Below, in pieces: positions 537 to 37,562 of a stretch of 64,000 nucleotides of DNA. The notes under the pieces are model-generated. The model made no database searches and was not told the DNA's origin. It worked only from the letters and a program-made list of their open reading frames with translations. Positions within the stretch are counted from its first letter, which is position 1. Every line of letters begins with the position of its first letter. The position numbers were made by a program, and so were the translations under genes. The stretch spans positions 16,492,001-16,556,000 of the forward strand of contig OX597842.1 in NCBI GenBank assembly GCA_951406725.2. The letters are read 5' to 3'. This stretch comes from Octopus vulgaris (Eukaryota).

Positions 537-647
537 GAATTGCTGTCTACAGTGGAAATGTCAACAATAAGAGAATGAACGATCATTTGTCTCCTAAACT
601 TCATAATGCCAACCTTCAGGGTGAAAATATTCCGTTGAAGATAAACA
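537..647 (+). CDS. Shortened (111-nt, phase 1-1) paralogue of the Ig-like exon, inverted copy: GIAVYSGNVNNKRMNDHLSPKLHNANLQGENIPLKIN
   Basis: Acceptor tttatttcag|GA and donor AACA|gtaagg match those of exons 24151-24399 and 29761-30009. Both ends (GIAV..GNV, LKIN) are homologous; the exon is 138 nt shorter with frame kept. Upstream exons would lie outside the window. Confidence 0.65.
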
Positions 648-1182: not shown

Positions 1183-1491
1183 TTAATAACAACAACAATA
1201 ATAACAAAAACAGCAACAACAACAATAATAATAATATTAACAATAATAATAATAAAAATATTAACAATAATAATAAGAAGAAGAAGAACAATAATAATAA
1301 TAATTATTATAATAATAATAATATTAATAATAATAATAATATTAATAATAACAATAATAGTAAAATATTAATAATAATAACAATAATAATAATAATAATA
1401 TCAGAGCATCACAACAAATCACAGCACATACCTAAGGCACACAGAGCTGCGCTTGGTAGTGAAGTGAAAGCACGCTATAAAAATAAAACTA

Positions 1492-1547
<56 letters not shown>

Positions 1548-1552
1548 CAACA
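1066..1552. repeat. (AAT)n/(AAC)n microsatellite containing a ~100-bp Dong/R4 3' remnant (1401-1497)
   Basis: Direct reading; 1401-1497 is the reverse complement of ~20772-20866. Confidence 0.9.
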
Positions 1553-1861
1553 GCTGCACGAATATTTTCATAATATTTACACAAATTCAAAGTTTGTAAC
1601 TTGACAATTTCAAGGTTTGCTTCTGTATTATATTTTCTTTTCTGTTTTGAATTGATAAGTTTTGATAATAATCCCTGGTGGGATATTTTTATAGTTCAAG
1701 GAATGGATTAGTTAGTTTCATTACCTAGGATTAACTGTCAGTTATACTATTTAATTGTTATAGAAACGAGTGACATTTTCCAGTTAATCATCAAGGTTGA
1801 ATTTGAAGAGAAAAATATTATTAATGGCAAAAATTGACAGAAGCCCTGTGTTTGCTTTTGC

Positions 1862-3742: not shown

Positions 3743-3835
3743 AAGGGGATTAGCTAATCTTTTAAATATAGTCGTCTCGGTGTGTTAACCTATTTCTTAC
3801 CATATTTCTGTTGAAATACATTGGTTTTGTATGAA

Positions 3836-4170
3836 AGCACATGGTTCAGCGGTTAGAGCATTGAGCTTATGATCGTGAGGTTGTGAGCTCGAATCCCGGA
3901 CCGGGCTGCATGTTGCGTTCTTGAGCAAGACACATTATTTCATGTTGCTCCAGTTCACTCAGCTGTAGAAATGAGTTGCAACGTCACGGGTGCCAAGCTG
4001 TATCGGCCCCTTTACCTTTCCCTTGGATAACATCTGTGGCGTAGAGAGGGGAGGCCGATATGCATGGGTGATTGCTGGTCTTCCACAAACAACCTTGCCC
4101 AGACTTGTGACTTGGAAGGTAACTTTCTAGGTTCAATCCCATGGTCTGTGTTGTGACTGAAGGGGATTCC
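3836..4170 (+). mobile_element. tRNA-derived SINE (second family); inverted copy at ~19030-19360
   Basis: A-box-like tggttcagcggttagagc and B-box-like gagctcgaatccc head followed by a conserved body. Confidence 0.7.
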
Positions 4171-4756
4171 GACCGACCGACCGTATGAATAAATTTTGAA
4201 AATTATGAAGATTTTAGTAAAATAACCTTGTCATTACCAAGCTAATATGTGCAACATAGTGTTACTGGAAATTTTCATGGGGACTTTTCTTTTAGATCAC
4301 TTTAAACTGGAATTTGTATAATAGAAACGAAAGTATTTTTTAATAGGTTAATATGAAAATGGTCAAGCTTGGGAGATATTACTATTTTTTATTAAAAACA
4401 AAGGCTATATATTTTTGTATTTAGGAATGATCATTTTGCCAGTTTAGCCAATAAAAACACACGCACTATATATTTGATGTTACTTTGCTTCAGCGTTATT
4501 TATTTTTTACATTAATCTTAATCTTATTTCAGCCAGAGTTCTTTTGTCACACTCCTGTGACCTCATCAGTGGTCCTTTGCTTTCTTCTTTCTTATTTGTG
4601 TATCTCCTTACTAACGGTAAGCCATTATTGGCTAAACTGGCAAAATGACCATTCCGAAATACAACAATATCTGTTTCAACACACGATTTCACATCAAAAT
4701 TCTTGTAAAACAAATATATAAATGTAGCTGTATATTTTATTGTTCATCAATTGCAG

Positions 4757-4902
4757 ATAAAAAAACTGAAGATGATGGATCAAGACCCTACAGTACACTT
4801 GAGATTGTCGGAATCATTCTTATCACACTCTTCCTCGCTTCAATCCTTTTGGGATTCCTTTTCTTCGGCTACAAATATTTCAGGAACTACCCATCAGTAT
4901 AA
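4757..4902 (+). CDS. Terminal stalk/TM/cytoplasmic exon of the plus-strand paralogue: (D)KKTEDDGSRPYSTLEIVGIILITLFLASILLGFLFFGYKYFRNYPSV*
   Basis: Acceptor catcaattgcag|AT in phase 1 fits the donor at 647; ~22-aa hydrophobic run then short tail and TAA; paralogous to 18264-18439. Confidence 0.75.
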
Positions 4903-5299
4903 GAATGCTACAATTTGTGTTTTTTTATATATATTTTTAAGTAATTCTATTTATCTGAATAAGACTTTCACTGACTGCATTGGCATGGTTGGATTTTAAA
5001 GAATTTATATCCATATTTTTTATATATCATCATCATTGTCATTAGTTTAGCAGTGTCTTTTCAAGATTCTGCTACATCTTTTGACTAAAATGACTGAGAA
5101 TTTAAAAATTTTTTAAACTATTGACTGTCTGTTTATCAATTTATGAAAACAACTAATAACCTTTTTTAACTTTTTGGAATTAAAAAAAATTTCAGTACAT
5201 TTTCAGTAAAATATTCAAAAATATAGTTTTTTAATTTTATATTTCAGCTTATGTAGAGAAACTAAGTTCCTTTTCTTGCTTGTATTTCACAGTTGGTTT

Positions 5300-6597: not shown

Positions 6598-7169
6598 TTA
6601 CTGTATTAAAAAACAATTTATGCCCATGTTTTACTTTAAAGCTGGGGTTCTCAACGATTTTTTATCTACGGATCCCTTTGATTGCTATTTTATTTTGCTG
6701 GAGCCCCATAAACATTTGGTGTTTAATAACAAGTTTTATAGGAACTTTTTTCAAAATTCCTCTTTTGTTCTTCCCCCATTAACTTGTGTAGGTCGAACTA
6801 TGTAAATTGTTAGAGAAAGAAACCTAGCTGTTTCTTGCAATACATACCAATACATACATCTAAAACAGGGGTTCTCAACCATTTTTTATCTATGGACCCC
6901 TTTGATTATGATTTTATTCTGGTGGACCCTTGTAGCAATTCAATGTTTAAAACTAGTTTTACACAAACTTCTTTCAAAATTCTTGTTTTGCTTTTTCACC
7001 CATTAACTTGTGTCGGTTGACCTATGTAAGACATCAGAGAAGGAAACCTAGCTGCTTCTTACAGTAAATACAACTAAAGTACAATTTTTTCATCTTCATC
7101 ATCATTGTTGTCATTTAACGTCCGCTTTCCATGCTAGCATGGGTTGGACGGTTTGACTGTGGGCTGGCA

Positions 7170-8320
7170 AACCAGATGGCTGCACCAAGCTTCAGTCTTG
7201 ATCTGGCAGAGTTTCTACAGCTGGATGCCCTTCCTAATGCCAACCACTCTGAGAGTGGACCCTTAAACCAGATGGCTGCACCAAGCTTCAGTCTTGATCT
7301 GGCAGAGTTTCTACAGCTGGATGCCCTTCCTAATGCCAACCACTCTGAGAGTGGACCCTTAAACCAGATGGCTGCACCAAGCTTCAGTCTTGATCTGGCA
7401 GAGTTTCTACAGCTGGATGCCCTTCCTAATGCCAACCACTCCGAGAGTGGACCCTTAAACCAGATGGCTGCACCAAGCTTCAGTCTTGATCTGGCAGAGT
7501 TTCTACAGCTGGATGCCCTTCCTAATGCCAACCACTCCGAGAGTGGACCCTTAAACCAGATGGCTGCACCAAGCTTCAGTCTTGATCTGGCAGAGTTTCT
7601 ACAGCTAGATGCCCTTCCTAATGCCAACCACTCTGAGAGTGGACCCTTAAACCAGATGGCTGCACCAAGCTTCAGTCTTGATCTGGCAGGGTTTCTACAG
7701 CTAGATGCCCTTCCTAATGCCAACCACTCCGAGAGTGGACCCTTAAACCAGATGGCTGCACCAAGCTTCAGTCTTGATCTGGCAGAGTTTCTACAGCTGG
7801 ATGCCCTTCCTAATGCCAACCACTCTGAGAGTGGACCCTTAAACCAGATGGCTGCACCAAGCTTCAGTCTTCATCTGGCAAAGTTTCTACAGCTGGATGC
7901 CCTTCCTCATGCAAACAACTCCGAGAGTGGACCCTTAAACCAGATGGCTGCACCAAGCTTCAGTCTTGATCTGGCAGAGTTTCTACAGCTGGATGCCCTT
8001 CCTAATGCCAACCGCTCTGAGAGTGGACCCTTAAACCAGATGGCTGCACCAAGCTTCAGTCTTGATCTGGCAAAGTTTCTACAGCTGGATGCCCTTCCTC
8101 ATGCAAACAACTCCGAGAGTGGACCCTTAAACCAGATGGCTGCACCAAGCTTTAGTCTTGATCTGGCAGAGTTTCTACAGCTGGATGCCCTTCCTCATGC
8201 AAACCACTCTGAGAGTGGACCCTTAAACCAGATGGCTGCACCAAGCTTCAGTCTTGATCTGGCAGAGTTTCTAGTTGGATGCCCTTCCTAATGCCAACAA
8301 CTCCGAGAGTGGACCCTTAA
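7170..8320. repeat. 96-bp tandem array (~12 copies) derived from the RTE 3' UTR; source of spurious 386-aa and 234-aa ORFs
   Basis: Unit aaccagatggctgcaccaagc...gagagtggacccttaa; most of the unit matches the RTE 3' UTR (reverse complement of ~43855-43925). Confidence 0.95.
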
Positions 8321-8759
8321 AATACTACCACAGATCCCCATTTAACTATTTTTTACATGTGGACCTCTTTTGATTAATATTTTGTTCTGGTGGACCCCTA
8401 TAGCCTTTTGATACTTAAAAACTAGTTTTATAGAAATTTCTTTCCAAATTCCTATTTTGCTTTCTCACATTAACTTGTGAAGGTGGAACTCTGTAAAAAG
8501 TTAGAGAAATAAACCTAGCTGTTTCATGCAATTCATACATCTAAAGCAAAGATTTATTATGGACCCTTAAAATACTACACCAAATCCTCAATTTACTATT
8601 TTGCTTGCATAGACCCCCTTTGTTTATTATTTTATTCTGGCGGGTTCCCATAACCATTTGATGTTTAAAAACTAATTTTTCACCCATAAACTTGTGTTGG
8701 TTGAACTCTGTAAAATATTAGAGAAAGAAACCCAGCTGTTTCTTACAATGTATACCAAT

Positions 8760-17241: not shown

Positions 17242-18079
17242 CGCGAAGAATCGGCAGCCAATTTCTAATCAGCCCTGTAAGGGAGATAGATCTTAATATC
17301 TATAACGATAACTAGTGAATTATACAGAATATGCAAAAACGAGGCGAGGCTGAAATAGTAAACAGAGTGGCGACTAGGGGGATCAGAATAATAATAATTA
17401 ATAAATAATAATAATAAATAGAGATACGGATGAATTAAAGTTCAAAGATTTCTTATCTTGAGATCACTTCGTTTACGGACAGACTTGGCAAAAGGAATTC
17501 GGAATCAAGAATGAGGCAGTTTACTAGCTTAAGTATGCATAGCCATGGCGGGTGGTAGGAAGAGAGGAGTCCAGACAGACGACAATGTAAAAAGAGGGGG
17601 AGAGAAGGGAAGAGAAAAACCCCGCGAAGAATCGGCAGCCAATTTCTAATCAGCCCTGTAAGGGAGATAGATCTTAATATCTATAACGATAGCTAGTGAA
17701 TTATACAGAATATGCAAAAACGAGGCGAGGCTGAAATAGTAAACAGAGTGGCGACTAGGGGGATCAGAATAATAATAATTAATAAATAATAATAATAAAT
17801 AGAGATACGGATGAATTAAAGTTCAAAGATTTCTTATCTTGAGATCACTTCGTTTACGGACAGACTTGGCAAAAGGAATTCGGAATCAAGAATGAGGCAG
17901 TTTACTAGCTTAAGTATGCATAGCCATGGCGGGTGGTAGGAAGAGAGGAGTCCAGACAGACGACAATGTAAAAAGAGGGGGAGAGAAGGGAAGAGAAAAA
18001 CCCCGCGAAGAATCGGCAGCCAATTTCTAATCAGCCCTGTAAGGGAGATAGATCTTAATATCTATAACGATAGCTAGTC
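17242..18079. repeat. Tandem repeat, ~380-bp unit, ~2.2 copies, ending at the edge of the inverted duplication
   Basis: cgcgaagaatcggcagccaatttctaatc recurs at about 17243, 17623 and 18004. Confidence 0.9.
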
Positions 18080-18263
18080 ATGAATTGATAAACAGACAGT
18101 TAATAGCTATAAAATTTTTTCAATTCTCAGTTATTTTAGCCAAAAGATGTAGCAGAATTTTGAAAAGACTCTGTTAAACCAATGACAATGATGATAATAT
18201 ATAAAAAATATGGATATAAATTCTTTAAAATCCAACTATGCCAATGCAGTCAGTGAAAGTTTT

Positions 18264-18439
18264 CTAACAGGGCTGCTGAACAGAATAATTTCTCTTCTTC
18301 TTGAGAGAGTTGTAGCCGAAGACAGAGAGTCCGACAAGGATTGCAGCAATGATTACGACAGCAATGATTACGACAGCAATGATTCCGAAAATCTCAAGTG
18401 TACTGTAGGGTCTTGATCCATCATCTTCAGTTTTCGGAT
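18264..18439 (-). CDS. Terminal stalk/TM/cytoplasmic exon of the minus-strand Ig-like receptor locus: (D)PKTEDDGSRPYSTLEIFGIIAVVIIAVVIIAAILVGLSVFGYNSLKKKRNYSVQQPC*
   Basis: Acceptor catcaattgcag|AT in phase 1; long hydrophobic helix then KKKR stop-transfer and stop codon; paralogous to 4757-4902. Confidence 0.8.
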
Positions 18440-19462
18440 CTGCAATTGATGAACAATAAAATATACAGCTACATTTATATATTTGTTTTACAAGAATTTT
18501 GATGTGAAATCGTGTGTTGAAACAGATATTGTTGTATTTCGGAATGGTCATTTTGCCAGTTTAGCCAATAATGACTTACCGTTAGTAAGGAGATACACAA
18601 ATAAGAAAGAAGAAAGCAAAGGACCACTGATGAGGTCACAGGAGTGTGAGGAAAGAACTCTGGCTGAAATAAGATAAAGATTAATGTAAAAAATAAATAA
18701 CACTGAAGCAAAATAACACCAAATATATAGTGCGTGTGTTTTTATTGGCTAAACTGGCAAAATGATCATTCCTAAATACAAAAATATATAGCCTTTGTTT
18801 TCAATAAAAAATAGTAATATCTCCCAAGCTTGACCGTTTTCATATTAACCTATTAAAAAATACTTTCGTTTCTATTATACAAATTCCAGTTTAAAGTGAT
18901 CTAAAGGAAAAGTCCCCATGAAAATTTCCAGTAACACTATGTTGCACACATTAGCTTGGTAATGACAAGGTTATTTTACTAAAATCTTCATAATTTTCAA
19001 AATTTATTCATAAGGTCGGTCGGTCGGAACACCCTTCAGTCACAACACAGACCATGGGATTGCACCTAGAATGTTACCTTCCTAGTCGCAAGTCTGGGCA
19101 AGGTTGTTTGTGGAAAACTAGCAGTTGCCCATGCATACCTGCCTCTCCTCTCCACACCACTGATGTTATCCAAGGGAAAGGCAAAGGGGCCGATACAGCT
19201 TCGCACCAGTGACGTTGCAACTCATTTCTACAGCTGAGTGAATTGGAGCAACGTGGAATAAAGTGTCTCGCTCAAGGACACAACATGCAGCCTGGTCCGG
19301 GATTCAAGCTCACAACCTCACGATCGTAAGCTCGATGCTCTAACCGCTGAGCCATGCACCTTCATACAAAAGCAATGTATTTCAACAGAAATATGGTAAG
19401 GAATAGGTTAACACACACCAGTATCCGAGAGGAGTATATTTAAAAGATTAGCTAATCCCCTT

Positions 19463-20430
19463 CAGATCAGTTCATCATTTAGAAGGGTTATATAGGATAT
19501 GCAAAGTGGATTGACTTTCTTATTCTAGCACAGAAATGCAAGGTCAACAGATCAGTCTATGATTTAGAAGGGTTATATAGGATATGCAAAGGGGTTTGAC
19601 TTTCTTATTCTAGCACAGAAATGCAAGGTCAACAGATCAGTCTATTATTTAGAAGGGTTATATAGGATATGCAAAGGGGTTTGACTTTCTTATTCTAGCA
19701 CAGAAATGCAAGGTCAACAGATCAGTCTATTATTTAGAAGGGTTATATAGGATATGCAAAAGGGATTGACTTTCTTATTCTAGCACAGAAATGCAAGGTC
19801 AACAGATCAGTCCATGCTTTAGAAGGGTTATATAGGATATGCAAAGGGGATTGACTTCGTTATTCTAGCACAGAAATGCAAGGTCAACAGATCAGTCCGT
19901 GATTTAGAAGGGTTATATAGGATATGCAAAGGGGTTTAACTTTCTCATTCTAGCACAGAAATGCAAGGTCAACAGATCAGTCCATGATTTAGAAGGGTTA
20001 TATAGGATATGCAAAGGGGATTGACTTCGTTATTCTAGCACAGAAATGTAAGGTCAACAGTTCAGTCTATGATTTAGAAGGGTTATATAGGATATGCAAA
20101 GGGGTTTGACTTTCTTATTCTAGCACAGAAATGCAAGGTCAACAGATCAGTCCATGATTTAGAAGGGTTATATAGGATATGCAAAGGGGTTTGACTTTCT
20201 TATTCTAGCACAGAAATGCAAGGTCAACAGATCAGTCCATGATTTAGAAGGGTTATATAGGATATGCAAAGGGCTTTGACTTTCTTATTCTAGCACAGAA
20301 ATGCAAGGTCAACAGATCAGTCCATGATTTAGAAGGGTTATATAGGATATGCAAAGGGGATTGACTTTCTTCTTCTAGCACAGAAATGCAAGGTCAACCG
20401 ATCAGTCTATGATTTAGAAGGGTTATATAG
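19463..20430. repeat. Inverted copy of the 85-bp minisatellite, ~11 copies
   Basis: Reverse complement of the 1862-3742 unit, in the same intron position. Confidence 0.95.
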
Positions 20431-20771
20431 CAAAAGCAAACACAGGGCTTCCGTCAATTTTTGCCATTAATAATATTTTTCTCTTCAAATTCAACCTTCA
20501 TGATTAACTGGAAAATGTCACTCATTTCTATAACAATTAAATAGTACAATTGACAGATAATCCTAGGTAATGAAACTAACTAATCCATTCCTCGAACTAT
20601 AAAAATATCCCGCCAGGGATTATTATCAAAACTTATCAATTCAAAACAGAAAAGAAAAACTAAGACAGAAGTAAACCTTGAAATTGTCAAGTTACAAACT
20701 TTGAATTTGTGTAAATATTATGAAAATATTCGTGCAGCTGTTGTTGTTGTTATCATTATTATTATTATTAT

Positions 20772-21062
20772 TCAGTAGTTTTATTTTTATCGCGTGCTTT
20801 CACTTCACTACTGAGTGCAGCTCTGTGTGCCTTGGGTATGTGCTGTGATTTGTTGTTATGCTCTGATGGTTATTGTATGGAAAGTGTTCTGCGTAGGATG
20901 TATGCAGTGCCTAGTAGTGCAATTTTCTGTATGTTATATATGTTTGTAAGTCCTGGTGTTTTTGCTATGTATTTGTCTGAATACTTTTTTATCATGCCTA
21001 ATGCACCAACTATGATAGGAATTGTTTCTGTTTTCAGATTCCACATTCTGGTTACCTCTATT
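20772..21062 (-). mobile_element. 3' end of an R4/Dong-like non-LTR retrotransposon in a (TAA)n tract; a further ~550-bp insert at ~21110-21668 is also flanked by (TAT)n
   Basis: Translation IEVTRMWNLKTETIPIIVGALGMI...IQKIALLGTAYILRRTLSIQ* resembles the C-terminus of RLE-type R4/Dong elements, which are known to target TAA repeats. Confidence 0.7.
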
Positions 21063-23605: not shown

Positions 23606-24150
23606 ACTATCAGCTGAGTCCATTGTGAAGATGGCCCCTCTACTTTCCTTCAACCAGGAAAGGCAACCAGTTTTTTATATGCTTGAGGCCCAGGGCAAAG
23701 GGGAACATATAGTAGACATTGCTGAAAGGGCTAAAGACCAGCAGTTGTCTTTTTGTCAAAACCTTAATAATCTTTTACAGGTTTCACTTAAAGAGGAAAA
23801 TCAGGATGGAGAGGTAAGTGCTGCCTTCCAATCAGTTTGTTGAAAGGTGGGTGATAGAGGTGAGCATTACCTGCGTGAATGGGCCTTCTCTCAGGGTGTA
23901 CCTGTATATTGGAGAGAAAAGACTAGGAGAGGGCATCCACCCTGGTGGTCAGGGAGACCATGGATTTTGTGGGTTTTCTTTACATGTAGCCCTTGAAAGT
24001 CCCTCCACTCTCAGGGGTTTTACTTTGACTTTGTTTCATTCATTGTATGACTTTTTACATGCTAAAACCCACACTGGACCCTCCCGAATGTTTTCCTTTG
24101 TGTTCGCCCTCTGAGGTTAATAAAGAAATTATTATAAATCATTTCCTTAC

Positions 24151-24399
24151 CTTTTATCTTCAAATGAATGTCAGCAGCATTTTGGTTGTCATCATCAAAT
24201 TCCCAAGTCAAACAATTCTTAGTTACGTCTTTGATAAAAAGAGTCGAAGTATTTCCAACATGTGCCACTTTATAGTAAGGGCCATCAGCGCATGTCCTGT
24301 CACATTCATATTTATAATTGTCGCACTTCCAAAACAACGGTCGTTTCATATTTGGTAATGTTATCGTCATTGTGACGTTTCCATTGTTCACAGCAATTC
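24151..24399 (-). CDS. Ig-like exon B (249 nt, phase 1-1): GIAVNNGNVTMTITLPNMKRPLFWKCDNYKYECDRTCADGPYYKVAHVGNTSTLFIKDVTKNCLTWEFDDDNQNAADIHLKIK
   Basis: Acceptor ctttatttcag|GA, donor AAAG|gtaagg, open frame. GNVT.TI..P, W and STL.I..V patterns resemble Ig strands B, C and E, without the canonical B-F cysteines. The Ig fold is an inference. Confidence 0.75.
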
Positions 24400-24569
24400 C
24401 TGAAATAAAGAAATCGGTTAAGAAGTTTTCTTCACAATCATATGGTTCTGGGTTCAGTCTCACTGCACAGCACCTTGGGAAAGTGTCTTCTACTACAGCC
24501 TCAGCCTTGTGAGTGGATTTGGTAGATGGAAACTGAAAGAATCCTGTCGTGTATATGTATATACATATA

Positions 24570-25985
24570 TGTATATATATCTATAAAATAATATGTTACA
24601 TTACTCAATAGTCAAGATAAAACTCTGAGTTTCAGATGCCGAGGTGGAAATCCACAACACCATCTCTTCGGTTATCTGGCCATTTGAAAAATGCTATGAA
24701 AAAATACCTTTAGATAAAGGGAAATTACTGTATTATAATTCTGCTCGCGAACCCACGTGCGTACTTATACGTCACTATGAAAACGTACACATCTTCACTC
24801 GCATTTTTCGCCAAATATACACGCATATATATACAACCTCATACACACACACATGCGTACCGTAAAAGTTCATACATACGTCTATATACGCACAAGCACA
24901 AGAAAAACCATGGTTAAAGATAACAGAAAAAAAACATAAGGAAGTATACAAAGCATAAAAACCACGTACATATACGGATAAGCCCCTATGCACTCATACA
25001 CACACACGCCCATATATGTACATACCCGCACATATTTATATACGCATACATACACACGCATATACAAAAATTGAATATACATATCTCCACCCGCAAAAAA
25101 AAAATTTTTTAAATACTAAGTAAAAACGTCTATATATATATATACGTGCATTCTTATGCCCGCATACACACACATATCTAAAACTGCCCACTTATACATA
25201 TTCACACACGTGTAGAAATGAACCTATATACACGTCTATATAGGCATAGGAAAAAACGCAGGATAGAAATGTACAGAAAAAATTATTATGCGTGAAAATA
25301 TAAAAAATATATGAAATAATAAAAGGTATAATGAGATGAAAACTTTTTGGGACATAATATAGAAAGCATGTTCTATCTGTTTTCTTTAGGGGACCAAAAA
25401 CCTAACAAAACATGTGTGCGGGCATAAGAATGCACATATATATATAGACGTTTTTACTTAGTATTTAAAAAAAATTTTTTGGGGGGTGGGGTGGGGACAT
25501 ATGTATATTCAATTTTTGTATATGCGTATATAAATATGTGCGGGTATGTACATATATGGGCGTGTGTGTGTATGAGTGCATAGGGGCTTATCCGTATATG
25601 TACGTGGTTTTTATGCTTTGTATACTTCCTTATGTTTTTTTTCTGTTATCTTTAACCATGGTTTTTCTTGTGCTTGTGCGTATATAGACGTATGTATGAA
25701 CTTTTACGGTACACATGTGTGTGTGTATGAGGTTGTATATATATGCGTGTATATTTGGCGAAAAATGCGAGTGAAGATGTGTACGTTTTCATAGTGACGT
25801 ATAAGTACGCACGTGGGTTCGCGAGCAGAGTTATAACACAGTAATTTCCCTTTATATAACGGTATTTTTTCATAGCATTTTTAAATTGGCCAGATAACCA
25901 AAGAGATGGTGTTGTGGATTTCCACTTCGGCATCTGAAACTCAGAGTTTTATCTTGACTATTGAGTAATATAAAATATTACTTAA
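24570..25985. repeat. Long inverted repeat, ~600-bp arms (about 24570-25175 and 25415-25985), ~240-bp spacer
   Basis: The same 72-aa ORF appears at 24775-24993(-) and 25576-25794(+); the arms are reverse complementary by eye. Confidence 0.92.
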
Positions 25986-26409
25986 TAGATAAATTTCCTC
26001 TATTTACATAATATTGAGGTCTCTTTCTTTCTTTTATAGTTATTTTCATTTTAATATTTCTATTATGTGTAATTTTCTAGATGGTGTAATTTAATTGTTC
26101 ATTTTGAATTGATAAAAGGTGGGGTTTTTTTCTATTTTTTGATATAAATATTATATTGTGTGAAATTTGATTTAGTATTTCTAAATTGAATTTTTTTTTC
26201 CCTGTTAGTTTGGATTTATATTCCCTCAAATAATAATTATGGGCTCCCCAGACCCCAGTTGAACCGTCCAACCCATGCTAGCATGGAAAACGGACGCTAA
26301 ATGATGATGATGATGATGATGATATATATATTAATTTCAGGGCATCACGGGCAAGTTATAAATATATAAACACACAAGAGATAAGCAAGGGACAAAATAA
26401 CAAAATACT

Positions 26410-26675
26410 TAACACCCAGTCATAATGTTGTAAGAGGCAGCTTCTGCCTGGTCGGAATCCATGCTGGGTATCAGTAAGCAAGTCATTTTCTTCATGGAAC
26501 ACGATTTGTTTCTTGCAGACTATTCAGTCTATGACTTTGCTGATGTGTGAGGTCAGAGAGATAGGCCTATAATTTTTAGCACCTGCCCTGCTTCCTCCTT
26601 TATGAATACAGCATATTATTCCTTCTTTCAGTTTGTCTGGGAGCTTACCAATTAAAAGAAGCTGCAGTGGTTTTG
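26410..26675 (-). mobile_element. CR1/L2-like RT fragment (degenerate)
   Basis: Minus strand reads ...NYRPISLTSHISKV...FHEENDLLTDTQHGFRPGRSCLLQHYDW. Confidence 0.75.
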
Positions 26676-28029
26676 CAAGGCCCAAATATCCTGCCATTTA
26701 TATGATTAAACTGGCCAGCTCTGGCCTCTCCCATCTAACCTACAATGTCATTCCAAAAATTCATCATCGTATCATTGAAATCTCAAAGCTACGAGATATT
26801 CCATGATCAATTCAAACCAATGTGAATAAATAAGGATTAAATTTCACTGAATTATCTGAATGCTAAAGGGTCAATATTTTTGCTCTTGGAAATTAAAAGG
26901 GAAAATGTGCAATAGAGACCATCAAAAGAAATTAGACATCTTATTACACTTAGACTAACGAGTTTTAATTTAATGAGATTTATGTTTATTGGGACATGAT
27001 TTCATCAGACATGGGTGTACGCCTGATTAAACCATGTCACTTTCCACTTACACCCACCCCACTTATTTTAACCTCTCAGAACCTGGTATAAAGCCACCAC
27101 ACTCACTGCTATGCTCTTCGGTCGGGGCTTTTTCCTTCCGCTTCCTTTGTCTTTAAAGTTACTTGGCGACCTACTAGTGTTGGTGGCAAGTAAAAATGCC
27201 TCCAACTACTCTGTAAAATGGTTGGCATTGAAAAGGAGGAATGAATTCTGCATGAAACATCATCATCATCGTTTAACATCCATTTTCCATGCTAGCATGG
27301 GTTGGACGGTTCGACCGGGATCTGGGAAGCCAGGAGGCTGCACCAGGCTCCAGTATGATCTGGCAGAGTTTCTACAGCTGGATGCCCTTCCTAAACGTCA
27401 ACCACTCCGTGAGTGTATTGGATGCTTTTTATGTGCCAGGGGAGGCTGGTAACGGCCACAATCGGTTGGTGGTTTTTACGTGCCACCGACATGGACCCCA
27501 GTCAAGGCGGTGCTGGCATTGGCAACGTACGGATAGTTCTTTTTACGAGCCACTGGCACAGGTGCCATAAGTGATGATGACAAACATCATAACCACAATC
27601 CTATTCAGAACGACTGTCATAATTGCAGCTACATGGTAACCAAATGAGTGATGGTGCAATGAAGAAAAGCAGCCACTAAATGTGGTAAAGTGGTGGGTGC
27701 TAGGACGGCCATGAAGCAATAGAAGCCTTGCCAATGCATGGAATGGAGTTCACCACAATGCTGTGGTGTGTTGGATTCATAGCAAAATTGAAGGTGTCAG
27801 TCCTATATGGACCCCCACAAACCATCATGACCCTGGTCGAAAACCACTGTTGCAGTACATTCCCTGATGTGCATTTTTGGCTCTTTAGCCTTTCTCAAAG
27901 GTCAAATTAAAAATTTAAAGAAATCAAAAATCAAAAGATTGGCTAAAAGTTATGAGTTAAGGGAAAGAAATAGAAGACAGAATTGAAAAGGTAATGTCTT
28001 AGAGAGAAAGGGTTTGTTAATCCACTTAC

Positions 28030-28068
28030 CAATTTTGGTGATTTCATCAGTATATGCATTTGTCAAAC
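28030..28068 (-). CDS. 39-nt micro-exon (phase 1-1): xLTNAYTDEITKI
   Basis: ttttttacag|GTTTGACAAATGCATATACTGATGAAATCACCAAAATTG|gtaagt. Confidence 0.7.
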
Positions 28069-29405
28069 CTGTAAAAAATGGAAACAAAAATGTTTGATTT
28101 TAAGATGATATAATTCAAAATAAGGTGAATAAAAGAACATTATATTTCACAGTAATCTGATTGCTAAAGGATTAAACCAGTCATATTAAACCAGCCATAT
28201 CTGTTTTATGTTTGAACTAGCCACATCCACCCTCTCACACCTACCCTACAATGTCAGTCTAAAAATAAACAATCACATCAAAATGTCAAAACTACAAGAT
28301 AATGAATGATTATTTCAAAAACCAGGAGGGAGGAAGTAGGTAGCTTAATGTGGGTGTGTTGACCCAAGGAGGGGTAAGAAGAGATAGCCAGATGAGGATG
28401 ATGGAGGTGGGGTGATCAAGGTATTGAAAGAAGCAGAAATGGAAAATTGGGAGATGAGCGGGAGGAGTGAGAGGAAAAGTATTTTCAAGGGTGGTCATTG
28501 TTGGGTATGACAATAGATGTTAATAGTTAGGGATGGTGGCACTATAGAACTAAGGGAAATTGGAAAGGTGGAAGATGGGAGAGGCGAGTATTAAAGGGAG
28601 AGAAAGGGTCCACTTACAGATGCTAGTAGTGTAACAAAGGGGAAATCTGAAAAATGAAGATGGGTTGGTGGCACATCAAAGTACAGAGGTATGTAGACAT
28701 GTATGAGTAAATAGAGGGAGTTGGTAGCAACAGTAGGAGTAGGTAGTACTAAGTGGTTTGGTTCTATTTGAAGAAGAAGATCAGATAAGAATTCAAAGTG
28801 TGAGGACGGGGTGGTTGTAAAGGGGTATGTGCTGGGTAGCAGGAATGTGCAAAGGTAATCTTTAAAAATATTTAGAATGGGGGAGGTGGTAATAGTGGAA
28901 GTGATATGTTGTTAGTACAACAAAGTTGTAACTTAAGGTTAATCATAAAGAATTACATAGATTTGACATAATAGGCAAACAAGGAATAGGTTCTGTGTTT
29001 ACATGAGAGGATTACATCTGAAAATTTATTAAATAATTAGGGCTTGTGGTTTTGAAAGATAGTGGATGATTCTCATACACAGTGCCAAGATTAGTGTTGT
29101 ATGGGGTGGGCGGGTAGAATATAGGGAATGTTTTGGGACCTGAGGTTCTGTATATAATTTGTTAATGAGGTAGATAATTTATAAGTTTAATTGTGGCGGA
29201 AAATCAAAAAATTTCCAAAATTTTCTTCCATAGAATGCATCATTTCTAAAGCTCTGCTAAAAACGAAATTGGAAAAATCCCAGTCCAAACAAAGAAAATC
29301 CACCTTATGTGAGTGACCTATTCTAGAACTCTGGGCACTCGAGTAAGTTTGCCTTAACAAAAATAACTTGTGGAAAAAATAAAATAAAATAAAAATAAAA
29401 CTTAC

Positions 29406-29451
29406 AGAAAAATGTTGCAAGCAAATAGCAGAACAAGGTCCAAACAGCCAT
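29406..29451 (-). CDS. Leader exon B, signal peptide MAVWTLFCYLLATFF (exon 29406-29454, 49 nt)
   Basis: ccaccag|ATC ATG...TTC T|gtaagtttt; hydrophobic; phase-1 donor whose downstream intron is homologous to that of leader A. Confidence 0.65.
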
Positions 29452-29760
29452 GATCTGGTGGGTGAGAGAGGTGAGCATTACCTGAGTGAATGGGCCTTCT
29501 CTTAGTGTATACCTGTATATTGAAGAGAAAAGACTGGGGAGGGCATCCACCCTGGTGGTCAGGGAGACCATGGATTTTGTGGGATTTCTTTATGTGTGGC
29601 GCTTGAAAGTCCCCCCATTCTCAGGGGTTTTACTTTGACTTTGTTTCATTCATTGTATGACATTTTACATGCTAAAACCCACACTGGACCCTCCCGAATG
29701 TTTTCCTTTGTGTTCGCCCTCTGAGGTTAATAAAGAAATTATTATAAATCATTTCCTTAC

Positions 29761-30009
29761 TGTTTATCTTCAAATGATTGTCTGCAGCATTTTGGTTGTC
29801 TTCATCAAATTTCCAAGTCAAACATTTCTTAGTTACGTCTTTGATCCAAAGCGTGGGAGTACCTCCACTATTTGCCACTTCATAGTCAGGGCCATCAGCG
29901 CATGTCCTGTCACATTCATATTTATAATTGTGGAACAACCAAACCACCGGTTGTCTAATGTTTGGTATTTTTATCCTAAGGATGAAATTTCGATTGCGCA
30001 CAGCAATTC
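29761..30009 (-). CDS. Ig-like exon A (249 nt, phase 1-1): GIAVRNRNFILRIKIPNIRQPVVWLFHNYKYECDRTCADGPDYEVANSGGTPTLWIKDVTKKCLTWKFDEDNQNAADNHLKIN
   Basis: Same splice sites and length as exon B, open frame, 55 of 83 residues identical. Confidence 0.75.
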
Positions 30010-31710
30010 CTGAAATAAAGAAATCAGTTAAGAAGTTTTCTCTACAATTATATGGTTCTGGGTTCAGTCCCACTGCACAGCACCTTGGGAAAGTGTCTTC
30101 TACTACAGCCTCAGCCTTGTGAGTGGATTTGGTAGATGGAAACTGAAAGAAGCCTGTCGTGTATATGTATATACATATAGGTAAATATAAATATATACAC
30201 ACATATATATATATGTGTGTGTGTGTGTGTTTGTGTGTGTGTTTGTGTGTCTGTGTTTGTTCCCCCAACATAGCTTGACAACCGATGCTGGTGTGTTCAT
30301 GCCCCCGTAACTTAGCGGTTTGGCAAAAGGGTCTGATAGAATAAGTACTAGGCTTACAAAGAATAAGTCCTGGGGTTGATTTGCTCGACTAAAGGTGGTG
30401 CTCCAGCATGGCCGCAGTCAAATGAGTAAAACAAGTAAAAGAGTAAAGAGTAAAGGGTATATATATAAATAGAAAATTTCAAAGCTATGAGATAATCCAT
30501 GATCAATTCAAACCAATGTGGATAAATAAGGATTACATTTCACTGAATTATCTGAATGCTAAAGGGTTAATGTTTTTGCCCTTGGAAATTAAAAGGGAAA
30601 ATGTGCAATAGAGACCATCAAAAGAAATTTGACATCTTATTACACTTAGACTAACGAGTTTTAATTTAATGAGATTTATGTTTATTGGGACATGATTTCA
30701 TCAGACATGGGTGTACACCTGATTAAACCATGTCACTTTCCACTTACACCCACCCCACTTATTTTAACCTCTCAGCACCTGGTATAAAGCCACCACCCTC
30801 ACTGCTATGCTCTTTGGTCGGGGCTTTTGCCTTCCGCTTCCTTTGTCTTTATAGTTAATTGGTGACCTTCTAGTGTTGGTGCCATGTAAAAAAGCCTCCA
30901 ACTACTCTGTAAAATGGTTGGCATTAAAAAGGAGGAATGAATTCTGCATGAAACGTCATCATCATCGTTTAACATCCGTTTTCCATGCTAGCATGGATTG
31001 GACGGTTCGACCGGGATCTGGGAAGCCAGGAGGCTGCACCAGGATCCAGTGTGATCTGGCAGAGTTTCTACAGCTGGATGCCCTTCCTAAACGCCAACCA
31101 CTACGTGAGTGTAGTGGTTACTTTTTATGTGCCAGGGGAGGCTGGCAATGACCATGATCGGTTGGTGGTTTTTACGTGCCACCAACATGGACCCCAGTCA
31201 AGGCGGCACTGGCATCGGCCACGTACAGATGGTGCTTCTTACGTGCCATGACTGATGATGACAAACATCACAACCACAGTCCTATTCAGAACGACTGTCA
31301 TAATCACTGCTACATGGTAACCAAATGAGTGGTGGTGCAATGAAGAAAAGCAGCCACTACATGTGGTAAAGTGGTGGGTGCTAGGAGGGCCATGAAGCAA
31401 TAGAAGCCTTGCCAATGCATGGAATGGAGTTCACCACAATGCTGTGGTGTGTTGGATTCATAGCAAAATTGAAGGTGTCAGTCCTATATGGACCCCCACA
31501 AACCATCATGACCCTGGTCGAAAACCACTGTTGCAGTACATTCCCTGATGTGCATTTTTGGCTCTTTAGCCTTTCTCAATGGTCAAATTAAAAATTTAAA
31601 GAAATCAAAAATCAAAAGATTGGCTAAAAGTTATGAGTTAAAGGAAAGAAATAGAAGACAGAATTGAAAAGGTAATGTCTTGGAGAGAAAGGGTTTGTTA
31701 ATCCACTTAC

Positions 31711-31749
31711 CAATTTTGGTGATTTCATCAGTATATGCATTTGTCAAAC
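31711..31749 (-). CDS. 39-nt micro-exon: xLTNAYTDEITKI
   Basis: Identical to 28030-28068 with intact ag and gtaagt. Confidence 0.65.
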
Positions 31750-33915
31750 CTGTAAAAAATGAAATCAAAAATGTTTGATTTTAAGATGATATAATTCAAA
31801 ATAATGTGAATAAAAGAACATTATATTTCACAGTAATCTGATTGCTAAAGGATTAAACCAGCCATATTAAACCAGCCATATCTGTTTTATGTTTGAAGTA
31901 GCCACATCCACCCTCTCACACCTACCCTACAATGTCAGTCTAAAAATAAACCAGTCTAAAAATAAACAATCACATCATCAAAATGTCAAAACTACAAGAT
32001 AATGAATGATTAATTCAAAAACCAGGAGGGAGGAAGTAGGTAGCTTAATGTGGGTGTGTTGACACAAGGAGGGGTAAGAAGAGATAGGCAGATGAGGAAG
32101 ATGGAGGTGAGGTGATCAGGGGATTGAAAGAAGTAGAAGTGGAAAATTGGGAGATGAGCGGGAGGTGTGAGAGGAAAAGTATTTTCAAGGGTGGTCATTG
32201 TTGGGTATGACAATAGATGTTAATAGTTAGGGATGGTGGCACTATAGAACTAAGGGAAATTGGAAAGGTGGAAGATGGGAGAAGCGAGTATTAAAGGGAG
32301 AGAAAGGGTCCACTTACAGATGCTAGTAGTGTAGTAAGGGGAAATCTGAAAGATGAAGATGGGTCGGCGGCACATCAAAGTACAGAGGTATGTAGACATG
32401 TATGAGTAAATAGAGGGAGTTGGTAACAAAAGTAGGAGTAGGTAGTACTAAGTGGTTTGGTTCTACTTGAAGAAGAAGATCAGATAAGAATTCAAAGTGT
32501 GAGGACGGGGTGGTTGTAAAGATGTATGTGCTGGGTAGCAGGAATGTGCAAAGGTAATCTTAAGAAATATTTAGAATGGGGGAGGTGGTAATAGTGGAAG
32601 TGATATGTTGTTAGTACAACAAAGTTGTAACTTAAGGTTAATCATAAAGAATTACATAGATTTGACATAATAGGCAAACAAGGAATAGGTTCTGTGTTTA
32701 CATGAGAGGATTACATCTGAAAATTTATTAAATAATTAGGGCTTGTGGTTTTGAAAGATAGTGGATGATTCTCATACACAGTGCCAAGATTAGTATTGTA
32801 TGGGGTGGGTGGGTGTGAGGGCTCACTGTTAATTAACCAGGGTAGAATATAGGGAATGTTTTGGGACCTGAGCTTCTGTATATAATTTGTTAATGATGTA
32901 GTTAATTTATAAGTTGGATTGTGGTGGAAAATCAAAAATGTTCCAAAATTTTCTTCCATAAAATGCATCATTTCTAAAGCTCAGCTCAAAACAAAATTGG
33001 AAAAATCCCTACTGAAACAAAGAAAATCCACCTTACGTGAGTGACCTATTCCAGACCTCTGTGCACTTGAGTAAGATTGCCTTAACAAAAATATCCTACC
33101 CCACTTATTTTAACCTCTCAGCACTTGGTATAAAGCCACCACCCTCACTGCTATGCTCTTCGGTCGCAGCTTTTTCCTTCCGTGTCCTTTGTCTTTATTG
33201 TTACTAGGCGACCTACTAGTGTTGGTGCCTGGCTCCAGTCTGATCTGGCAGAGTTTCTATAGCTGTTTGCCCTTCCTAAACACCAACCACTCCGTGAGTG
33301 TAGTGGGTGCTTTTTATGTGCCACCAGCACAGGTGCCAGGGGAGGCTCGCAACGGCCACGATCGGTTGGTGGTTTTTACGTGCCACCGACATGGAAGCCA
33401 GTCAAGGCGGTGCTGGCATCGGCCACGTACAGATGGTGCTTCTTACGTGCCACTGGCACAGGTGCCATGACTGATGATGACAAACATCATAACCACAGTC
33501 CTATTCAGAACGACTGTCATAATCGCAGCTACATGGTAACCAAATGAGTGATGGTGCAATGAAGAAAAGCAGCCACTAAATGTGGTAAAGTGGTGGGTGC
33601 TAGGACGGCCATGAAGCAATAGAAGCCTTGCCAATGCATGGAATGGAGTTCACCACAATGCTGTGGTGTGTTGGATCCATAGCAAAATTGAAGGTGTCAG
33701 TCCTATATGGACCCCCACAAACCATCATGACCCTGGTCGAAAACCACTGTTGCAGTACATTCCCTGATGTGCATTTTTGGCTCTTTAGAAATTTAAAGAA
33801 ATCACAAATCAAAAGATTGACTAAAAGTTATGAGTTAAGGGAAAGAAATAGAAGACAGAACTGAAAAGGTAATGTCTAGTTTAAAAGGAGAGAAAAGGTT
33901 TGTTAATCCACTTAC

Positions 33916-33954
33916 CACTTTGGGTGATTTCATCAGTATATGCATTTGTCAAAC
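33916..33954 (-). CDS. 39-nt micro-exon variant: xLTNAYTDEITQS
   Basis: ttttttacag|GTTTG...ACCCAAAGTG|gtaagt. Confidence 0.6.
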
Positions 33955-36103
33955 CTGTAAAAAATGAAATCAAAAATGTTTGATTTTAAGATGATATAAT
34001 TCAAAATAATGTGAATAAAAGAACATTATATTTCACAGTAATCTGATTGCTAAAGGAATAAACCAGCCATATCTGTTTTATGTTTGAACTAGCCACATCC
34101 ACCCTCTCACACCTACCCTACAATGTCAGTCTAAAAATAAACCAGTCTAAAAATAAACAATCACATCAAAATGTCAAAACTACAAGATAATGAATGATTA
34201 ATTCAAAAACCAGGAGGGAGGAAGTAGGTAGCTCAATGTGGGTGTGTTGACCCAAGGAGGGGTAAGAAGAGATAGCCAGATGAGGATGATGGAGGTGGGG
34301 TGATCAGGGTATTGAAAGAAGTAGAAGTGGAAAATTGGGAGATGAGTTGGAGGAGTGAGAGGAAAAGTATTTTCAAGGGTGGTCATTGTTGGGTATGATA
34401 ATAGATGTTAATAGTTAGGGATGGTGGCACTATAGAACTAAGGGAAATTGGAAAGGTGGAAGATGGGAGAGGCGAGTATTAAAGGGAGAGAAAGGGTCCA
34501 CTTACAGATGCTAGTAGTGTAATAAAGGGGAAATCTGAAAAATGAAGATGGGTCGGCGGCACATCAAAGTACAGAGGTATGTAGACATGTATGAGTAAAT
34601 AGAGGGAGTTTGTAGCAAAAGTAGGAGTAGGTGGTACTAAGTGGTTTGGTTCTACTTGAAGAAGAAGATCAGATAAGAATTCAAAGTGTGAGGACGGGGT
34701 GGTTGTAAAGATGTATGTGCTGGGTAGCAGGAATGTGCAAAGGTAATCTTAAGAAATATTTAGAATGGGGGAGGTGGTAATAGTGGAAGTGATATGTCGT
34801 TAGTGCAACTAAGTTGTAACTTAAGGTTAATCATAAAGAATTACATAGATTTAACATAATAGGCAAACAAGGATTAGGTTCTGTGTTTACATGAGAGGAT
34901 TACATCTGAAAATTTATTAAATAATTAGGGGTTGTGGTTTTGAAAGATAGTGGATGATTCTCATACACAGTGCCAAGATTAGTGTTGAAAGGGGTGGGTG
35001 GGTGTGAGGGCTCACTGTTAATTAACCAGGGTAGAATATAGGGAATGTTTTGGGACCTGAGCTTCTCTATATAATTTGTTAATGAGGTAGTTAATTTATA
35101 AGTTGGATTGTGGTGGAAAATCAAAAATGTTCCAAAATTTTCTTCCATAAAATGCATCATTTCTAAAGCTCTGCTAAAAACAAAATTGGAAAAATCCCTA
35201 CTGAAACAAAGAAAATCCACCTTACGTGAGTGACCTATTCCAGACCTCTGTGCACTTGAGTAAGATTGCCTTAACAAAAATATCCTACCCCACTTATTTT
35301 AACCTCTCAGCACCTGGTATAAAGCCACCACCTTCACTGCTATGCTCTTCGGTCGGGGCTTTTTCCTTCCGCTTCCTTTGTCTTTATTGTTACTAGGCGA
35401 CCTACTAGTGTTGGTGCCTGGCTCTAGTCTGATCTGGCAGAGTTTCTATAGCTGTTTGCCCTTCCTAAACACCAACCACTCCGTGAGTGTAGTGGATGCT
35501 TTTTATGTGCCAGGGGAGGCTCGCAACGGCCACGATCAGTTGGTGGTTTTTACGTGCCACCGACATGGAAGCCAGTCAAGGCGGGGCTGGCATCGGCCAC
35601 GTACAGATGGTGCTTTTTACATGCCACCAGCACAAGTGCCATAAGTGATGATGACAAACATCATAACCACAATCCTATTAAGAACGACTGTAATAATCGC
35701 AGCTACATGGTAACCAAATGAGTGGTGGTGCAATGAAGAAAAGCAGCCACTACATGTGGTAAAGTGGTGGGTGCTAGGAGGGCCATGAAGCAATAGAAGG
35801 CTTGCCAATGCATGGAATGGAGTTCACTACAATGCTGTGGCTTGTTGGATCCATAGCAGAATTGAAGGTGTCAGTCCTATATGGACCCCCACAAACCATC
35901 ATGACCCTGGTCGAAAACCACTGTTGCAGTACATTCCCTGATGTGCATTTTTGGCTCTTTAGCCTTTCTCAAAGGTCAAATTAAAAATTTAAAGAAATCA
36001 AAAGTCAAAAGATTGGCTAAAAGTTATGAGTTAAGGGAAAGAAATAGAAGACAGAATTGAAAAGGTAATGTCTAGGAGAGAAAAGGTTTGTTAATCCACT
36101 TAC

Positions 36104-36142
36104 CAATTTCGGTGATTTCCTTAGGATACGTATTTGTGAAAA
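36104..36142 (-). CDS. 39-nt micro-exon variant: (V)FTNTYPKEITEI
   Basis: ttttttacag|TTTTCACAAATACGTATCCTAAGGAAATCACCGAAATTG|gtaagt. Confidence 0.65.
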
Positions 36143-37513
36143 CTGTAAAAAATGAAAACAAAAACGTTTGATTTTAAGATGATATAATTCAAAATAATGT
36201 GAATAAAAGAACATTATATTTCACAGTAATCTGATTGCTAAAGGATTAAGCCAGCCATATCTGTTTTATGTTTGAACTAGCCACATCCACCCTCTCACAC
36301 CTACCCTACAATGTCAGTCTAAAAATAAACAAGTCTAAAAATAAACAATCACATCATCAAAATGTCAAAACTACAAGATAATGAATGATTAATTCAAAAA
36401 CCAGGAGGGAGGAAGTAGGTAGCTTAATGTGGGTGTGTTGACCCAAGGAGGGGTAAGAAGAGATAGCCAGATGAGGAAGATGGAGGTAGGGTGATCAGGG
36501 TATTGAAAGAAGTAGAAGTGGAAAATTGGGAGATGAGTGGGAGGTGTGAGAGGAAAAGTATTTTCAAGGGTGGTCATTGTTGGGTATGACAATAGATGTT
36601 AATAGTTAGGGATGGTGGCACTATAGAACTAAGGGAAATTGGAAAGGTGGAAGATGGGAGAGGCGAGTATTAAAGGGAGAGAAAGGGTCCACTTACAGAT
36701 GCTAGTAGTGTAATAAAGGAGAAATCTGAAAGATGAAGATGGGTCGGCGGCACATCAAAGTACAGAGGTATGTAGACATGTATGAGTAAATAGAGGGAGT
36801 TGGTAGCAACAGTAGGAGTAGGTAGTACTAAGTGGTTTGGTTCTACTTGAAGAAGAAGATCAGATAAGAATTCAAAGTGTGAGGACGGGGTGGTTGTAAA
36901 GATGTATGTGCTGGGTAGCAGGAATGTGCAAAGGTAATCTTTAAAAATATTTAGAATGGGGGAGGTGGTAATAGTGGAAGTGATATGTTGTTAGTACAAC
37001 AAAGTTGTAACTTAAGGTTAATCATAAAGAATTACATAGATTTGACATAATAGGCAAACAAGGACTAGGTTCTGTGTTTACATGAGAGGATTACATCTGA
37101 AAATTTATTAAATAATTAGGGGTTGTGGTTTTGAAAGATAGTGGATGATTCTCATACACAGTGCCAAGATTAGTGTTGAAAGGGGTGGGTGGGTGTGAGG
37201 GCTCACTGTTAATTAACCAGGGTAGAATATAGGGAATGTTTTGGGACCTGAGGTTTTGTATACAATTTGTTAATGAGGTAGTTAATTTATAAGTTGGATT
37301 GTGGTGGAAAATCAAAAATGTTCCAAAATTTTCTTCCATAAAATGCATCATTTCTAAAGCTCAGCTCAAAACAAAATTGGAAAAATCCCTACTGAAACAA
37401 AGAAAATCCACCTTACGTGAGTGACCTATTCCAGACCTCTGTGCACTTGAGTAAGTTTGCCTTAACGAAAATAAGTTATGGAAAAAATAAAATAAAATAA
37501 AAATAAAACTTAC

Positions 37514-37562
37514 CAGCACATGTCATTAAGAGTAAGAGGACCAACTTGAAAAGGTCCATCAT
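37514..37562 (-). CDS. Leader exon A, signal peptide MMDLFKLVLLLLMTCA (49 nt, phase-1 donor)
   Basis: attttttcag|ATG ATG GAC...GCT G|gtaagt; classic n/h-region signal peptide. Confidence 0.75.

Follow-up and report, generated by a model that had tools for sequence, protein, structure and literature searches.

Clustered, fast-evolving immunoglobulin (Ig) families are, as a general kind, already well known in other animals. In the vertebrate CEACAM/PSG cluster, the domain that faces the ligand is under positive selection and has repeatedly undergone gene conversion (PMC8860441). Secreted, glycosylphosphatidylinositol (GPI)-anchored and short-tailed transmembrane CEACAMs occur, the GPI forms having arisen via stop mutations in the transmembrane exon (passages of PMC2832619). 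The Alr complex of Hydractinia comprises dozens of clustered single-pass genes whose Ig domains show no diagnostic motifs and have been identified chiefly through structure prediction (passages of PMC9546547), and the PTC2 region of Biomphalaria stands for clusters in molluscs whose single-pass genes are hyperdiverse and have been linked to resistance against parasites (PMC7494358). For molluscs, the available sections of a 2026 review on immune diversification treat FREPs and bring in cephalopods only for blood-cell formation (PMC13428168). Here a stretch of 64,000 nucleotides of the Octopus vulgaris genome (C29:16,492,001-16,556,000, the window) was analysed, which carries on its minus strand a gene with two Ig-like exons, exon A (29761-30009) and exon B (24151-24399). 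Together with their relatives elsewhere in the genome, these exons point to an undescribed, expanding and positively selected octopus Ig family, of which no description was found in the open literature, supplements and subscription papers lying outside the search.

By analogy, the octopus family would work like CEACAM/PSG without being a member of it. Its cassette duplication, gene conversion, replacements around a fixed core and varied anchoring match the evolution of CEACAMs under microbial adhesins, as far as the passages cited above describe it. No CEACAM homology was found with a profile of 58 exons in PDB sequences or among the 20 of 54 representative profile hits that were looked up by name. 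The two systems differ in that octopus has tandem repeats of one domain type where CEACAM has N plus A/B domains, in that each octopus domain is encoded by two exons, of 39 nt and 249 nt, and in the absence of partners bearing an immunoreceptor tyrosine-based inhibitory or activation motif (ITIM or ITAM) among the octopus tails read. With Alr the octopus cluster shares single-pass Ig genes and a fold recognised mainly by structure prediction, whereas the V-set plus I-set domains, Fn3-like region, long ITAM/ITIM tails and extreme allelic polymorphism of Alr were not seen in the octopus family. PTC2 is resembled only in kind: its diversity lies between haplotypes, while that in octopus was found between paralogues. 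No Biomphalaria protein was among the 20 profile hits looked up, and no direct homology test was made.

Exons A and B are both 249 nt long, with phase 1-1 and AG/GT ends. According to the first-pass annotation of this DNA they are more diverged than the introns that flank them, and its counts were reproduced. The exons differ at 41 of 249 nt, with 28 replacement and 4 purely synonymous changes in the 82 whole codons; intron 24011-24150 differs from its paralogous segment at 1 of 140 nt, the upstream flank at 6 of 160 and the distal intron, earlier put at about 9%, at 14 of 164 (8.5%). Sixteen replacements fall within codons 1-27 (clustering p=0.0012), and both N-glycosylation sequons of exon B are absent from exon A. 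The central motif that had been singled out as invariant is indeed DNA-identical in the pair, but it is not specific to it, as it is DNA-identical in 9 of the 32 young exons defined below. Over all alignable flank of the pair 25 of 490 nt differ (5.1%), and the contrast between exon and whole flank is far above chance (p=9e-7). Replacement sites (34 of 188) are strongly above the flank (p=4.5e-7); silent sites are not, whether 7 of 58 (p=0.07) or 4 of 58 (p=0.53) are counted. The silent rate (dS) of the exons is at the intron background and their replacement rate (dN) about twice that background, a combination that favours selection. The proposal that conversion tracts fully explain the intron identity found no backing, since no tract was significant for the pair (score 1.0, threshold 7.1); a 140-nt window with at most one difference would arise somewhere in its flank with a probability of 0.03.

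A search of the genome for such exons gave 88 matches, 79 of them at E<=4e-5, of which 69 lie on C29. From the strong matches 75 exons were extracted, together with one weak match, four strong matches on other contigs being left out; 75 of these 76 exons are open, 246-252 nt long and have AG/GT ends. The main cluster (C29 19.74-20.47 Mb, 0.7 Mb) consists of 16 small units with 1-4 domains each on both strands, as delimited by annotating signal, micro- and terminal exons; each unit has its own terminal exon and 15 have a detected signal exon. Codon analysis was performed on 75 exons, divided into 43 older ones and a young set of 32, which comprises the window pair, four exons at 0.33 Mb and 26 in the main cluster and at 22.36 Mb.

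In the young exons the dN/dS ratio (omega) under model M0 was 2.01. The codon models were our own; M0 was checked against IQ-TREE (log-likelihood -2506.86 versus -2506.88). Five other codon models gave 1.94-2.14, a separate tree per half, third or quarter gave 2.06-2.25, and the value was 2.16 for the 26 exons of the main cluster and 22.36 Mb and 2.13 for the remaining six. Six pseudo-codon readings of the flank, used as a control, yielded 0.90-1.08. The ratio thus stays near 2 with more paralogues and did not drop to 1 or below. An omega above 1 that is robust to recombination and codon model was found for the 32 young exons and not for the 43 older ones, where it was 0.47; over all 75 it was 0.66. 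The maximum reached in 39 simulations with recombination and no selection was 1.42, and one of 103 further neutral recombination simulations reached 2.0 (value 2.07), the simulation means being 0.95-1.09. Measures that need no tree point in the same direction. For 25 main-cluster exons (one was dropped because of a repeat insertion in its flank), nucleotide diversity (pi) was 0.063 at four-fold sites and 0.056-0.074 in the flank, versus 0.123 at second positions. Tree-free minimum-step counts gave ratios of replacement to silent change of 1.63, 2.07 and 1.47 (p 0.019, 0.001 and 0.011). Fifteen of 16 disjoint closest young pairs, one above the 45-nt cut-off being dropped, showed 193 replacement versus 27 silent changes, a ratio of 2.33 from pairs that are not fully independent owing to conversion. 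Compensating frameshifts behind the replacement clusters were not seen in the two closest pairs inspected. Diversifying selection on the young exons is therefore probable from the sequence comparisons; together with the Ig fold, this part of the first-pass annotation was supported at the level of the family.

Two recent tandem duplications on C29, 334064/352629 and 330280/342638, have 15 and 7 changed codons, all replacements, with only 2 differences in 240 nt of flank in each case.

Several observations weigh against this reading. The exon pair by itself is non-significant: its dN/dS is 1.4-2.0 depending on kappa, which is not significantly above 1 (Fisher p 0.08-0.40), so that selection is not proven by the pair taken alone. 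The 140-nt segment with its single difference is the most conserved part of the flank across the whole young family; it is no neutral yardstick and overstates the contrast between exon and flank. Three small old clades gave omega values of 1.63, 1.53 and 0.83, none significantly above 1, and the count over closest pairs, applied to 15 of 21 older pairs, gave 1.06. Site models yielded high statistics in the young exons (M1a/M2a 77.4, M7/M8 86.0, M8a/M8 77.2). However, 39 of 39 simulations with recombination and without selection were also 'significant' (7.9-82.1), one of them exceeding the observed 77. The M7 versus M8 comparison that had been proposed is thus invalidated by recombination; the site-model likelihood tests were set aside as evidence, and the list of selected sites is indicative only. 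Signal-peptide exons showed only replacement changes (12 exons, 15 codons), with omega at its bound, and transmembrane exons gave 1.09; on their few codons these exons show no purifying signal, so that the genes contain no clean purifying control. Contigs from two DNA or unclassified runs differed by 0-4 letters over 170-280 nt of these exons, and no extreme allelic polymorphism was seen among the contigs compared (four runs, contigs that drop rare variants, one run possibly the source sample). As the Octopus sinensis counterpart of domain 2 also differs at only 3 of 73 residues, the diversity is shown between paralogues, not between alleles. Finally, the variable residues do not form one surface: they are spread over both sheets and several loops.

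Recombination among the copies was evident from the clustering of incompatibilities (p<0.002), and significant conversion tracts were detected in 12 of 435 pairs. The flank itself is not uniform. The first 110 nt of the downstream intron have a pi of 0.023 in the young family versus 0.072-0.074 elsewhere in the flank, and 14 of 102 columns are variable there versus 82 of 312 in the other flank. When this conserved element was omitted, first and second positions were still 1.83 times as diverse as the flank (24 exons; column bootstrap 1.34-2.53, which is optimistic because linkage is ignored). The element, about 110 nt long and private to the family, directly follows the donor site of each young exon and is about three times more conserved than the other flank. 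Most main-cluster copies have a polyadenylation hexamer at about +110, and the window copies are without it; such a hexamer could allow secreted transcripts. RNA structure of the element is weak (z -0.1 to -2.2 in three copies, consensus -9.3 kcal/mol). Coding use is not supported: a conserved read-through frame is present in 21 of 32 young exons, and a 1-nt loss breaks it in 10.

Exon B matches 100% to CAI9743493.1, a hypothetical protein of 300 residues from Octopus vulgaris, which was mapped exon by exon onto the minus strand of the window. According to this gene model, exons A and B are the successive domains 1 and 2 of one predicted single-pass membrane gene, with the following features.

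37514-37562, minus strand: signal-peptide exon, 49 nt, starting with ATG; matches residues 35-50 of CAI9743493.1
36104-36142, minus strand: 39-nt micro-exon for the N-terminal segment of Ig domain 1, used in CAI9743493.1
33916-33954, minus strand: extra copy of the 39-nt micro-exon in a 2.2-kb tandem repeat unit, a possible alternative start of domain 1
31711-31749, minus strand: second extra copy of the 39-nt micro-exon, identical to 28030-28068
29761-30009, minus strand: Ig-like domain 1 exon (exon A), 249 nt, without N-glycosylation sequon, Cys25 replaced
29650-29760, minus strand: conserved proximal intron element after domain 1
29406-29454, minus strand: second signal-peptide exon, intact-looking, within the intron after domain 1
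28030-28068, minus strand: 39-nt micro-exon for the N-terminal segment of Ig domain 2
24151-24399, minus strand: Ig-like domain 2 exon (exon B), 249 nt, two sequons
24040-24150, minus strand: conserved proximal intron element after domain 2, with 36 strong copies in the genome, of which those checked adjoin family exons
23846-24585, no strand assigned: duplicated block of exon and flanks, 740 bp, 91% identical to 29457-30195
18264-18439, minus strand: terminal exon with stalk, transmembrane helix, short tail without canonical ITAM/ITIM, and stop
537-647, plus strand: in-frame copy of the Ig exon, shortened internally to 111 nt, in an inverted fragment; likely a pseudogene
4757-4900, plus strand: transmembrane exon of the inverted fragment

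The second signal exon at 29406-29454 sits at the end of the duplicated block, which suggests that the gene may have arisen by fusion of two one-domain genes. In a 475-nt contig, whose run is guessed to be RNA, the segment matching 24151-24398 is flanked by 39 and 188 other letters, and in a 525-nt contig from a run of undocumented kind the match ends at 24151. Both contigs fit splicing at the boundaries of the domain 2 exon, although no run listed as containing the sequence is recorded as RNA. The micro-exon copies in the window show the same contrast as the Ig exons, with 8-9 of 39 nt different but only 3-5% of some 1.37 kb of flanking sequence. They lie in four tandem units of about 2.2 kb (26778-37513, 91-95% identical), one in each; three of the four precede domain 1 and could be alternatives.

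For the inverted fragments no signal or micro-exon was found in 50 kb upstream, and with a 111-nt Ig exon and a transmembrane exon they are likely pseudogenes. The fragment in the window has a mirror copy at C29 about 16,487,600-16,490,550 on the minus strand, and another copy of the element lies at C29 16,428,856. Tandem arrays with a period of about 85 bp at 1851-3742 and 19463-20440 are common to an inverted duplication (1400-5146 / 18078-20867); a further array at 7169-8321 has a period of 96 bp.

An Ig fold, a two-sheet beta-sandwich, is predicted for the family domain. AlphaFold modelled domain 2 from a 74-row alignment with a local confidence score (pLDDT) of mostly 87-96, two 10-residue blocks being at 61 and 68, and with the Ig strand order A'-B-C-C'-D-E-F-G; domain 1 was less confident (pLDDT 44-70). 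Foldseek and VIA searches with the domain model returned nearly exclusively Ig-fold chains (VIA Z 8-9.3, about 90 residues at about 3 A) with no standout relative. CEACAM7, at Z 8.1, matched no better than other Ig domains. Sequence searches were less telling: Pfam assigned no family to the two window exons and I-set weakly to 13 of 58 members (best E 1.4e-4), and the search of PDB sequences with the profile of 58 exons gave nothing decisive. A canonical V-set or I-set Ig domain carries a disulfide between its B and F strands. This bond is absent from the family domain, which has Leu10/Ile12 in the B strand and Trp65/Phe67 in the F strand. The C-strand tryptophan W23 is present in 96% of the 75 exons, cysteine C32 of the C' loop is invariant and C36 is found in 92%, with C25 and C62 in addition in young copies. 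The C' strand, with its Cys-x3-Cys loop, hardly varies, and the Trp, Cys, Phe and Leu of the core are retained. The high-posterior sites, placed by predicted strands only, lie on strands B, C, D, E, F and G and most loops. A homodimer prediction for domain 2 scored 0.01. The Atlas hits, viral E3 CR1 and unnamed mollusc clusters at 0.92-0.93, are leads only.

Among the 16 terminal exons of the main cluster, five encode a full helix with a tail of few residues, eight a hydrophobic end without tail, in four cases owing to a stop inside the helix, and two an immediate stop, one being unresolved. One O. sinensis isoform terminates at the same early stop. As judged by eye, the tail-less hydrophobic ends are predicted GPI signals, and members with an immediate stop are predicted to be secreted. 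Canonical ITAM/ITIM motifs were absent from the tails read (0 to about 20 residues), and the Ig domains are directly followed by a short stalk and the helix, without an Fn3-like region.

Searching 1.84 billion representatives with the profile yielded 54 hits. The 20 looked up by name comprise 12 from Octopus (three species), 2 from Argonauta, 4 from Haliotis and 2 lamprey obscurin-like proteins; the Haliotis and lamprey matches are weak or multi-repeat, and every annotation among the molluscan ones is uncharacterised or hypothetical. True homologues (O. sinensis LOC115225115/116/442, O. bimaculoides LOC106867739 and others, A. hians GAB1602944.1) share the domain, the signal peptide and a hydrophobic C-terminal region. 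In both Argonauta proteins and some dispersed octopus copies one such domain is followed by a different second domain, which is likely the ancestral layout. The abalone (Haliotis) proteins are membrane proteins with tandem Ig-like repeats, two of which, on inspection, have a similar Cys-x3-Cys loop; they possibly indicate a wider molluscan lineage of the domain. Of ten O. sinensis main-cluster domains eight differ by 4-11 residues from the nearest O. vulgaris exon and two by 1-2, consistent with continuing turnover. Two exons on C29, at 7289569 and 7622300, are DNA-identical although 330 kb apart on opposite strands, reflecting either a very recent inverted duplication or an assembly artefact. 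One database gene model (matching C4:131.07 Mb) joins C2H2 zinc fingers to a family Ig exon and is probably a mis-prediction.

That selection would favour novel surfaces in proteins serving to bind microbes or parasites, or as decoys for them, is, by analogy, the account to which we incline slightly. The same selection statistics would apply if the driving force were cell-cell recognition in the octopus itself, in the gamete and reproductive tract or as variant-specific adhesion like that of Hydractinia Alr1/Alr2. Tandem non-canonical Ig domains in a genomic cluster do resemble the Alr genes (passages of PMC9546547), and the nearly invariant C' strand and Cys-x3-Cys loop could be a conserved contact. 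Alr allodeterminants, however, have tens to hundreds of alleles according to the same passages, against the 0-4 letters by which the octopus copies compared differ; the diversity is mainly between paralogues, and stop-truncated and tail-less forms fit decoys at least equally well, which renders this alternative unlikely. Distinctly unlikely is the absence of any positive selection, with young duplicates drifting under relaxed constraint while conversion and the constrained intron element let the flanks and silent sites appear slow. Such drift would accommodate the threefold conservation of the proximal intron, the likelihood tests inflated by strong recombination, the single neutral simulation at 2.07 and the lack of a purifying signal in signal-peptide and transmembrane exons. 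It predicts an omega of about 1, as obtained in the flank control and the simulation means, and it does not account for first and second positions that still exceed the flank without the conserved element, for 75 of 76 intact exons or for invariant core residues.

Two further explanations were weighed. A neural or sensory code for cell identity, which would have expanded in octopus as its protocadherins have, could draw on the precedent that cephalopod protocadherins grow by duplication and conversion (passages of PMC9068888, the main text of which does not contain the word immunoglobulin). Structural neighbours of the domain include Ig proteins of cell adhesion, among them Kirrel3, NCAM2, RIG-5 and Dpr/DIP, at the generic Ig level only. 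Against a neural code, most main-cluster domains are without close O. sinensis counterpart (the eight of ten mentioned above), and a cytoplasmic signalling domain is absent. To our knowledge, poor conservation between close species is unusual for wiring genes, and we consider this code very unlikely. Lastly, the cluster might be one Dscam-like locus that generates diversity via mutually exclusive splicing of its Ig exons. All exons have phase 1-1, RefSeq gives at least 18 isoforms of O. sinensis LOC115225115 that mix micro-exons and domains, and three micro-exons stand ahead of domain 1 in the window. Yet because the main locus consists of 16 units on both strands with terminal exons of their own, 15 of them with a detected signal exon, it is a gene cluster and not of the Dscam type, and the RefSeq isoforms may join neighbouring paralogues; the splicing explanation is hardly credible.

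The preferred reading, selection for new microbe- or parasite-binding surfaces, may be envisaged as follows. The cassette, in which a 39-nt micro-exon is paired with a 249-nt exon (phase 1-1 in each), has been duplicated within and between genes, and gene conversion exchanges short tracts among the copies, as the statistics show. Replacement changes are retained at outward-facing and loop positions around the fixed core, probably through selection, and the terminal exon varies between transmembrane, predicted GPI-linked and predicted secreted forms. Drawing on the short-tailed, tail-less or stopped terminal exons, and on the analogy with CEACAMs, the proteins may serve in adhesion or capture, or as decoys, and not as receptors that signal by themselves. 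On this analogy we infer an arms-race recognition role for the family. More doubtful is the full proposal that a CEACAM-like germ-line recognition repertoire arose independently in octopus on a single chromosome, in which dozens of cassettes, reshuffled by conversion and driven apart by pathogens, would supply membrane-bound, GPI-linked and secreted decoys, and in which the intron element would promote conversion or switch transcripts to a secreted form.

For the study of such families the locus is a clear case in which the standard site-model test gives false confidence, the question being decided by simpler controls at silent sites and in introns. Because the genes are small, intact and clustered and occur in three Octopus species, they are experimentally accessible, and they provide a concrete and sizeable candidate for diversified surface recognition in octopus. 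If the proposed repertoire is real, it would amount to a variable system of immune recognition for which the literature searched contains no description in cephalopods.

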